Assembly: GCF_054482595.1 (NCBI RefSeq)
Contig: NZ_CM137008.1
DNA length: 64,000 nucleotides
Reading direction: 5' to 3' (one strand)
Shown: one piece after another, positions 2,921-14,098 of the stretch
Layout of the letters: every line of letters starts with the position of its first letter
Position numbering within the stretch: position 1 is the first letter of the stretch
The notes under the pieces: model-generated
Database searches by the model: none
The model's input: the letters and a program-made list of their open reading frames with translations, nothing else
What the model was told of the DNA's origin: nothing
Position numbers and translations under genes: made by a program

Positions 2921-4303
2921 ATGGAGATGTATTTTAAAAGAATGAAAGATGAGTGGACCGGACTTGTCGAACAGGCAGATCCGCCCATTCGAGCTAAAGC
3001 CGCGGAAATTGCCGTTGCGCATGCTCATTATCTGAGTATTGAGTTTTATCGAATTGTCCGCATCGACCCGCATGCCGAAGAATTCTTGAGTAATGAACAA
3101 GTTGAGCGGCAGTTGAAAAGTGCGATGGAACGCTGGATTATTAACGTGCTTTCTGCCCAGGTTGACGATGTCGAAAGGCTAATACAAATCCAGCATACCG
3201 TCGCGGAAGTGCATGCCCGCATAGGAATTCCGGTAGAAATTGTCGAGATGGGGTTTCGGGTGCTGAAAAAGATCCTCTATCCGGTAATCTTCTCTTCGGA
3301 TTATTCTGCCGCAGAAAAACTTCAGGTCTACCATTTCTCGATTAACAGTATTGATATCGCTATGGAAGTGATGACCCGCGCGTTTACCTTTAGTGACAGT
3401 AGTGCCTCAAAAGAAGATGAAAACTATCGTATCTTCTCGTTACTGGAAAACGCCGAAGAAGAAAAAGAACGGCAAATAGCCTCAATACTTTCATGGGAAA
3501 TAGATATCATCTATAAAATCCTGCTGGATTCTGATTTAGGCAGTAGTTTGCCTTTAAGCCAGGCTGATTTTGGCCTGTGGTTTAACCATAAAGGTCGACA
3601 TTATTTCAGCGGCATTGCTGAAGTGGGCCATATCTCTCGTCTGATTCAGGATTTCGACGGTATTTTCAATCAAACCATGCGTAACACCAGGAATTTGAAT
3701 AACAGAAGTCTGCGGGTGAAATTTTTATTACAGATAAGAAATACCGTATCGCAAATTATTACCTTGCTGCGTGAATTGTTTGAAGAAGTATCGCGCCACG
3801 AAGTCGGTATGGATGTACTGACGAAATTACTTAACCGCCGTTTCCTGCCGACTATCTTCAAACGCGAAATTGCCCATGCCAACCGGACCGGTACACCGCT
3901 GTCAGTGCTGATTATTGACGTTGATAAATTCAAAGAGATCAACGATACGTGGGGCCATAACACTGGCGATGAAATTCTGCGTAAAGTCTCTCAGGCCTTT
4001 TATGACAACGTCCGCAGTAGTGATTATGTTTTCCGCTACGGGGGCGATGAATTTATCATTGTTTTGACTGAAGCTTCTGAAAACGAAACGTTACGTACCG
4101 CAGAACGTATTCGCAGTCGGGTGGAGAAAACCAAACTGAAAGCCGCAAACGGCGAAGATATTGCCCTCTCACTTTCCATCGGTGCCGCCATGTTTAATGG
4201 TCATCCTGACTATGAGCGCCTCATTCAAATAGCCGATGAAGCTCTGTATATCGCCAAAAGACGAGGTAGAAACCGTGTTGAACTCTGGAAAGCCAGTCTT
4301 TAG
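2921..4303 (+). CDS. dosC: Diguanylate cyclase DosC (globin-coupled sensor with GGDEF domain)
   Basis: 460-aa ORF; C-terminal GGDEF motif (RYGGDEF) seen in translation; immediately upstream of dosP. Confidence 0.9.
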   Translation: MEMYFKRMKDEWTGLVEQADPPIRAKAAEIAVAHAHYLSIEFYRIVRIDPHAEEFLSNEQVERQLKSAMERWIINVLSAQVDDVERLIQIQHTVAEVHARIGIPVEIVEMGFRVLKKILYPVIFSSDYSAAEKLQVYHFSINSIDIAMEVMTRAFTFSDSSASKEDENYRIFSLLENAEEEKERQIASILSWEIDIIYKILLDSDLGSSLPLSQADFGLWFNHKGRHYFSGIAEVGHISRLIQDFDGIFNQTMRNTRNLNNRSLRVKFLLQIRNTVSQIITLLRELFEEVSRHEVGMDVLTKLLNRRFLPTIFKREIAHANRTGTPLSVLIIDVDKFKEINDTWGHNTGDEILRKVSQAFYDNVRSSDYVFRYGGDEFIIVLTEASENETLRTAERIRSRVEKTKLKAANGEDIALSLSIGAAMFNGHPDYERLIQIADEALYIAKRRGRNRVELWKASL

Positions 4304-13004: not shown

Positions 13005-13436
13005 TTACGATTTCAACTGGTAATCCAGCGTAATTTCCGCTTTCAGTACCTGAGAGACCGGGCATCCTGCTTTTGCTTTCTGGATGATGCCGTCAAAGGT
13101 AGAGGCATCAATACCCGGCACCGCAACTTCACTCTTCAGTGCGATTTTCGTAATCGCAAAACCGGCATCCACTTTATCCAGCGACACATCGGCGGTGGTA
13201 TCAATCGATGTTGGCGTAAATCCCGCTTCCCCCAGCATTAATGAAAGCGCCATTGAGAAACATGCGGCATGCGCTGCGCCAATCAGTTCTTCAGGGTTAG
13301 TTCCTTTTTCGCCTTCAAAACGCGTGTTAAATCCATACGGCTGTTGGTTCAGCACACCACTCTCGGTGGATACTGTTCCCTTCCCGCGTTTGATATCGCC
13401 TTCCCAGTGTGCCTGACCTTTCTTATGGATTGTCAT
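13005..13436 (-). CDS. osmC: Osmotically inducible peroxiredoxin OsmC
   Basis: 143-aa ORF beginning MTIHKKGQAHWEGDIKRGKG; OsmC/Ohr family. Confidence 0.95.
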   Translation of the reverse strand: MTIHKKGQAHWEGDIKRGKGTVSTESGVLNQQPYGFNTRFEGEKGTNPEELIGAAHAACFSMALSLMLGEAGFTPTSIDTTADVSLDKVDAGFAITKIALKSEVAVPGIDASTFDGIIQKAKAGCPVSQVLKAEITLDYQLKS

Positions 13437-13781
13437 TGTTGCTCTCCTGTGGGCTTAAAAAGGAAATTATAGACTACGTGAGAAACAGCACGAGGATAAG
13501 CAGGATATTCCGAATAAAAATCCGGCAGAAATATTACTTCTGCACTTAAATTAAATTTCCACAATAGATAACCGGGAATATATAACCCAAGAGATATTGC
13601 ATTAATATTAATCAACTCACCACAATAATAATACCTATCAATATCATGAGGTTAAAATATAAAAATCATCAACCAGGACTAATCTTAACAACGAAGCGGC
13701 AAATATTTGCCATGCTGAATGTGCTTTATAAATCTGCGATCCGTAGCAGACACCATAAATACACAGACACGGAGAATCACT

Positions 13782-13997
13782 ATGTTTACTTATTATCAGG
13801 CAGAAAATTCAACAGCAGAACCCGCTCTGGTTAATGCCATTGAGCAAGGCCTTCGGGCAGAGCACGGTGTTGTCACTGAAGATGACATTCTCATGGAGCT
13901 GACCAAATGGGTGGAAGCTTCTGATAACGACATCCTCAGTGATATCTACCAGCAAACGATCAATTATGTGGTCAGTGGCCAGCACCCTACGCTTTAA
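13782..13997 (+). CDS. bdm: Biofilm-dependent modulation protein Bdm
   Basis: 71-aa product MFTYYQAENS… within ORF 13719-13997; divergent from osmC as in K-12. Confidence 0.85.
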   Translation: MFTYYQAENSTAEPALVNAIEQGLRAEHGVVTEDDILMELTKWVEASDNDILSDIYQQTINYVVSGQHPTL

Positions 13998-14098
13998 GGT
14001 GCTATGCTTGATCGGCAACCTAATTTAGGGGTTTAGCACGTGTTTCTTCGCTACGGCGATGTTGTCCTTAAAACTAGCAACAGGATTGAGGAGTTAAA

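Follow-up and report, generated by a model that had tools for sequence, protein, structure and literature searches.

Layout of the osmC-bdm locus

The window (the whole 64-kb stretch of E. coli DNA that was analysed) carries a divergent gene pair, osmC (minus strand) and bdm (plus strand), with ddpD and ddpF as upstream neighbours and sra and maeA downstream. Many complete E. coli genomes match 996 bp across osmC and bdm with 100% identity, and RefSeq annotates the two genes in them under these names. The features of the locus are as follows.

13005-13436, minus strand: osmC coding sequence, peroxiredoxin OsmC, 143 aa (open reading frame; so named by RefSeq in E. coli DNA with 100% identity)
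13444-13448, minus strand: Shine-Dalgarno sequence of osmC, AGGAG, read from the sequence and kept as AGGAG or GGAG across 80 loci
13517-13660, no strand: AT-rich centre of the spacer, which is hypervariable within E. coli and cannot be aligned across genera
13782-13997, plus strand: bdm coding sequence, 71 aa, with a Shine-Dalgarno GGAG at 13771-13774

An earlier note on this DNA had placed the spacer between the genes at 13437-13781, and these limits are exact: the osmC start codon (minus strand) ends at 13436 and the bdm ATG begins at 13782, leaving 345 bp. Its description of the spacer as a divergent osmC-bdm control region is borne out by the open reading frames and by the RefSeq annotation of the identical E. 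coli DNA. Spacer identity drops to ~91% among E. coli strains, with the variation in the centre far above that of the genes on either side and of the promoter-proximal ends. Across eight E. coli alleles both promoter-proximal ends are conserved (0-4 variable columns per 20 bp), compared with 8-16 variable columns per 20 bp in the hypervariable centre at ~13517-13660. The spacer also differs in length, being 345 bp here and 519 bp in Salmonella arizonae.

Generic scans of the spacer were uninformative. A sigma-70 scan returned just two matches, both at chance level and within the AT-rich centre, and picked up neither of the activator-dependent promoters described below; Rfam models gave nothing above threshold in the spacer or close to it. 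Two "terminator-like" hairpins from a generic scan (13525-13543 and 13697-13712) were rejected, as they are not conserved as hairpins.

Symmetric elements near osmC

The earlier note had drawn attention to a 30-mer, caggatattccgaataaaaatccggcagaa, which is indeed found at 13501-13530, and to a 9-nt dyad within it. Two overlapping elements have to be told apart.

13503-13511, no strand: the flagged "dyad" GGATATTCC, consisting of a GGA half-site and a TCC shifted by one base from the register of the canonical right half
13506-13516, no strand: a true 11-bp palindrome, TATTC-C-GAATA (TATTCCGAATA), lying across the distal half of the osmC RcsB box

The 9-mer had been called palindromic but is no palindrome: its reverse complement is GGAATATCC, and only the 3-nt arms GGA and TCC pair, across TAT. 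Nor is the 30-mer centred on it, the centre of the dyad lying at 13507 and that of the 30-mer at ~13515. GGATATTCC occurs once within the window, where 0.36 copies are expected per 64 kb and at least one copy was present in 34 of 100 shuffles. Dyads with arms of 3 and a gap of 3 are at chance level, with 6 observed in the spacer and 6.1 in dinucleotide shuffles. Statistically the dyad is nothing and its interest comes wholly from its context; the significance of the element derives from position and cross-genus conservation rather than from symmetry. For the palindrome TATTCCGAATA, P is about 0.06, and the symmetry is broken in strain E2348/69.

An RcsB box abutting the distal osmC promoter

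Phosphorylated RcsB activates osmC, which is also RpoS-regulated, and the RcsB-D56E protein protects osmCp1 from DNase I. A review gives the usual place of RcsB sites as immediately upstream of the -35 element. The RcsB box has been described as a 14-bp pseudo-palindrome, TN(G/A)GAN4TC(T/C)NA, with a lower-affinity form TN(G/A)GAN4(A/C)CTNA (PMC7913699); an older RcsAB box consensus is TaAGaatatTCcta. The flagged bases fall within such a box, which lies among the following promoter features.

13500-13513, minus strand: probable RcsB box of osmCp1, TCGGAATATCCTGC on the osmC strand, centre about -42.5 (consensus, orthologues and position weight matrix)
13494-13499, minus strand: TTATCC, putative -35 of osmCp1, 17 bp upstream of TAGTCT
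13471-13476, minus strand: TAGTCT, putative -10 of osmCp1, at -12 to -7 of start 13464
13466-13472, minus strand: CTATAAT, sigma-S-type -10 with an upstream C (osmCp2); a CTATACT anchor is conserved in 76/81 sequences
13464, minus strand: mapped osmC transcription start, position 1554621 of NC_000913.2, which precedes the ATG by 28 nt (supplement of Kim et al. 2012, PMC3415461)

The start at 13464, mapped onto the window from the table of Kim et al. 2012, is preceded by TTCGGAATATCCTGCTTATCCTCGTGCTGTTTCTCACGTAGTCTATAATTT and has low support (3 reads); its spacing suggests that it is the osmCp1 start. Relative to this start the box is centred at -42.5 and directly abuts the -35-like TTATCC, which is followed by a 17-bp spacer and TAGTCT. 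The box thus has the location of an RcsB site abutting the -35 of the promoter that it activates. The TT immediately after the box is kept in other genera (as TTGCCA, TTACCA or TTCC), positions 16 and 17 being T in 29/43 and 39/43 sequences, respectively. The original mapping reportedly set osmC p1 and p2 10 bp apart, and the box centre could lie at about -37 if p1 starts about 5 bp further upstream. osmCp2 is a sigma-S-dependent promoter.

The 14-mer at 13500-13513 matches 6/8 positions of the strict consensus TNRGAN4TCYNA and 7/8 positions of the lower-affinity form TNRGAN4(A/C)CTNA, and these scores are no rarer than in shuffles of the spacer. Likewise, a scan of the AT-rich spacer with the strict RcsB consensus gave matches not above those in shuffles and is non-significant alone. 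Since consensus scores could not single out the site, three independent lines were used: geometry, as given above, a phylogenetic footprint and a position weight matrix (PWM).

The PWM was built from 33 distinct osmC boxes from outside Escherichia. Within the spacer, its two best matches are 13674-13687, at the bdm end (8.4 bits), and 13500-13513 (7.4 bits), with the next best at 3.2 bits. Among the 127,974 positions of the whole window these rank 20th and 45th, respectively, the latter in the top 0.04%. The best osmC-type PWM match of the window (13.5 bits) is elsewhere, at 3296-3309 (GCAGAATAATCCGA / TCGGATTATTCTGC), inside a 460-aa open reading frame at 2921-4303 on the plus strand; intragenic RcsB motifs are common in Salmonella (PMC7913699).

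Compared with the canonical RcsB operator, the osmC box shares the left half, TcGGA, and the 14-bp frame, and its right half, CCT, corresponds to the lower-affinity variant (A/C)CT. It differs in having CCT instead of TCY as the right half and C instead of A as the final base. Because the right half-site is CCT and not TCY, the affinity of the osmC box for RcsB is probably low.

Conservation of the osmC box

For the phylogenetic footprint, one scan of GTDB genomes yielded 80 osmC loci, or 81 sequences with the window. The sigma-S-type -10 (CTATAMT) served as the anchor, and every offset from 0 to 79 nt upstream of it was scored for an RcsB box with a threshold of at least 6/8 matching positions. 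Such matches pile up at offsets 26-27, where they occur in 43/76 anchored loci, with no more than 4 at any other of the 80 offsets; the loci are phylogenetically related, so that these counts overstate the number of independent events. The E. coli box lies at offset 27.

In the 43 boxed sequences, the half-site bases are nearly invariant (G4 in 42, A5 in 43, T10 in 40 and C11 in 43), and the N4 centre and both flanks vary freely. This is the pattern of an RcsB box, conserved half-sites with a drifting centre and drifting flanks. The boxed genera are Escherichia, Citrobacter, Enterobacter, Lelliottia, Kluyvera, Superficieibacter, Cedecea, Siccibacter and Buttiauxella. Their flanking sequences cannot be aligned with one another, and Escherichia alone among the boxed groups has C at box position 10. 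Among E. coli alleles, the sole change inside the osmC box is in E2348/69 (GGATAATCC), at an N4 base, and from the osmC box to the start the window is identical to K-12 over a 51-mer.

At the anchored osmC loci, no box was found at offset 26-27 in Salmonella, C. amalonaticus, Klebsiella, Pantoea/Erwinia or Pectobacterium. Because Salmonella, Klebsiella, Pantoea/Erwinia and Pectobacterium have no box there, conservation of the box is lineage-limited, and Rcs control of osmC is lineage-specific. Sigma-S dependence of osmCp2 has been reported in the literature, and a sigma-S-type -10, CTATACT(T), lies ~30-40 nt upstream of the osmC ATG in 76/81 Enterobacterales sequences (loci L003-L080). It is far more widespread than the RcsB box, and Escherichia is unusual in having CTATAAT. 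A fixed-offset pile-up of this kind can validate a weak site where single-sequence statistics fail, which gives the comparative result a modest value.

For S. Typhimurium, an RcsB motif has been given for osmC/yddX, TGAGATTTATCCTA (PMC7913699). This motif was considered as an orthologue of the E. coli osmC box and rejected: it maps to the middle of the longer Salmonella spacer, in Salmonella-specific DNA. S. arizonae (locus L016) has a 7/8 RcsB-box match, TAACATTTTTCCTA, at the corresponding mid-spacer position; its distance is 238 nt to the osmC ATG and 268 nt to that of bdm.

E. coli CUWW10 (locus L082, 2501-3330) has an IS1A insertion flush with the proximal end of the osmC RcsB box (window 13500/13501 onward). 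The element replaces the box, the remaining spacer and the first bdm codons, and bdm is annotated there with 201 bp instead of 216 bp. The insertion amounts to a natural loss of both the bdm promoter and the Rcs/NhaR control of osmCp1.

RcsB and NhaR at osmCp1

Taken together, geometry, conservation and PWM rank argue that 13500-13513 is the RcsB box of osmCp1, the activator-dependent distal osmC promoter, and that it serves osmC only, a reading to which we assign a probability of about 0.87. Equating these bases with the published footprint rests on geometry, conservation and secondary citations. Reviews and related papers confirm the regulation and give no coordinates for the RcsB site of osmC or of bdm; a literal literature search for the box sequence returned unrelated primer matches only. 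In comparison with the known osmCp1 RcsB box (Davalos-Garcia et al. 2001; Sturny et al.), the gene, the promoter region and the position beside the -35 are alike, and nothing substantive differs; in the window, the A-tract that adjoins the box upstream is longer by one A. The osmCp1 RcsB (and NhaR-overlapping) operator is real and already known. osmC is a textbook-level multi-stress promoter on which RcsB, NhaR and sigma-S converge, and finding the operator again brings no new biology.

Mechanistically, a phosphorylated RcsB dimer would bind the half-sites GGA and CCT/TCC ~42 bp upstream of the osmC start and, through a presumed contact of the class-II type, recruit or stabilise sigma-70 RNA polymerase. 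The promoter would have a weak -35 (TTATCC) abutting the box and, beyond the 17-bp spacer, a weak -10 (TAGTCT), these exact hexamers being presumptive. The overlapping sigma-S promoter, osmCp2, would use CTATAAT.

A second regulator, the LysR-type NhaR, has to be fitted into the same stretch. The title of Sturny 2003 states that NhaR and RcsB regulate osmCp1 at overlapping sites, and NhaR shifts osmC promoter DNA; its motif is poorly defined in the literature. Next to the box lies one further candidate element.

13510-13525, no strand: imperfect dyad CCGAAT-AAAA-ATCCGG with an A-tract, candidate NhaR part of the overlapping NhaR/RcsB region

NhaR would use a stretch overlapping the RcsB box, probably reaching into TATTCCGAATA and CCGAAT-A-tract-ATCCGG (13506-13525, the exact bases being presumptive), and this overlap would let osmCp1 respond to salt independently. 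The 2003 work of Sturny and colleagues reportedly found that RcsB and NhaR depend on one and the same short sequence immediately 5' of the -35 and that the regions they protect, close to it, overlap. The geometry found here agrees with this.

The symmetry at the site might mainly belong to NhaR, with TATTCCGAATA and CCGAAT-A-tract-ATCCGG forming its operator and RcsB merely overlapping it. This reading is compatible with the RcsB box and strikes us as plausible, at a little under even odds. Besides the overlap announced in the title of Sturny 2003 and the binding of NhaR to osmC promoter DNA, it draws on the palindrome's P value of about 0.06 and on the restriction of the palindrome and the imperfect dyad to Escherichia, both being kept within that genus and absent from other genera that have the RcsB box. 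However, although both elements are present at the osmC box, the ill-defined NhaR motif and its proposed consensus, TCgaAAAAatCtA, align with them poorly and unconvincingly by eye, and the length of the A-tract differs between E. coli alleles.

At 13516-13520 the window has AAAAA, compared with AAAA in K-12, O157, E2348/69 and the other alleles examined. The extra A alters the spacing inside the CCGAAT...ATCCGG dyad just upstream of the osmC box. The exact 63-mer of the window with five A's is present in 966 of 5,222 complete E. coli genomes (about 18%).

A separate RcsB module at bdm

bdm is Rcs-regulated as well, and the earlier note had proposed that one activator site serves both genes. 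The bdm end of the spacer has promoter features of its own.

13674-13687, plus strand: RcsB box of the bdm promoter, CAGGACTAATCTTA / TAAGATTAGTCCTG, centre about -41.5, top PWM score in the spacer
13698-13711, no strand: perfect 14-bp palindrome GGCAAATATTTGCC, inside the bdm core promoter
13708-13716, plus strand: TGcCATGCT, putative extended -10 for bdm, shared by E. coli, Salmonella and Citrobacter, with a presumed spacing to 13722
13722, plus strand: bdm transcription start as used by others, the reverse-primer end of a bdm-lacZ fusion (PMC10746276)

The table of transcription starts in Kim 2012 (PMC3415461) holds none for bdm. The end-point of the fusion primer was used in its place, the fragments of the bdm-lacZ transcriptional fusions having been described as reaching "to the transcriptional start site" (PMC10746276). 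Measured from 13722, the bdm box is centred at -41.5 and the osmC box at -215.5. The bdm box matches the consensus at 7/8 positions on both strands and is identical in S. arizonae; C. amalonaticus keeps the half-sites with a different centre (CAGGAGTTTTCTGA). Both Salmonella and C. amalonaticus keep the bdm box and lack the osmC one. Compared with the osmC box, the bdm box (Francez-Charlot et al. 2005) shares the regulator, the -41/-42 geometry and the spacer, and differs in being a site of its own, its centre 174 bp from that of the osmC box, and in matching the consensus better (7/8). The osmC and bdm modules are near mirror images, and bdm would be driven by its own module, with RcsB bound at 13674-13687 ~41.5 bp upstream of its own start.

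The palindrome GGCAAATATTTGCC sits between the bdm RcsB box and the bdm start and overlaps the putative extended -10. It is rarer than expected by chance (P about 0.04), and outside Escherichia (in Salmonella and Citrobacter) the right arm alone is kept. Its half-sites presumably resemble operators of the LacI/PurR type (GCAAA..TTTGC), with a central TA replacing CG.

Two forms of joint control can be weighed against separate RcsB sites for osmC and bdm. In the weaker form, the two modules are functionally coupled, occupancy of the osmC box modestly assisting bdm and the reverse; RcsB at both boxes might jointly displace a silencing nucleoprotein filament (H-NS/Lrp-type) or form a loop. This would be a weak form of the "shared control" idea; it is pure conjecture, and we regard it as very improbable.

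In the form proposed by the earlier note, one RcsB site centred on GGATATTCC activates both promoters. Both genes are Rcs-regulated in the literature and the site does lie in the spacer common to them, but about 215 bp to the bdm start is far outside activation-competent positions for such a regulator. A shared divergent site would lie within reach of both starts and have no second site beside it. Instead, 13500-13513 is about -42.5 from the osmC start and about -215.5 from the bdm start, and bdm has its own conserved box at about -41.5. The bdm box is moreover the higher-scoring of the two and is kept in Salmonella and Citrobacter even without an osmC-proximal box, and the DNA between the boxes is hypervariable in both sequence and length. 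The single shared site is largely refuted and retains only a marginal probability. What stands of the proposal is that the flagged bases lie in an RcsB-type activator site, as position, PWM rank, conservation and literature indicate; what falls is the sharing with bdm.

That the dyad is a product of chance and functionless is just as improbable. The chance-level frequency of arm-3/gap-3 dyads, the unremarkable 9-mer count and the non-significant consensus scan would favour this reading. It is already contradicted by the comparative data, with half-site bases kept at a fixed offset in about nine genera, and is opposed by the PWM rank of 13500-13513 together with its class-II geometry and by the published RcsB protection at osmCp1.

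Downstream of bdm, the Kim 2012 table (PMC3415461) places an sra transcription start at ~14015, 84 nt before the sra ATG and just 3' of the bdm stop codon (13995-13997). A start near 14015 fits with sra having a promoter of its own, besides read-through from bdm (PMC10746276).
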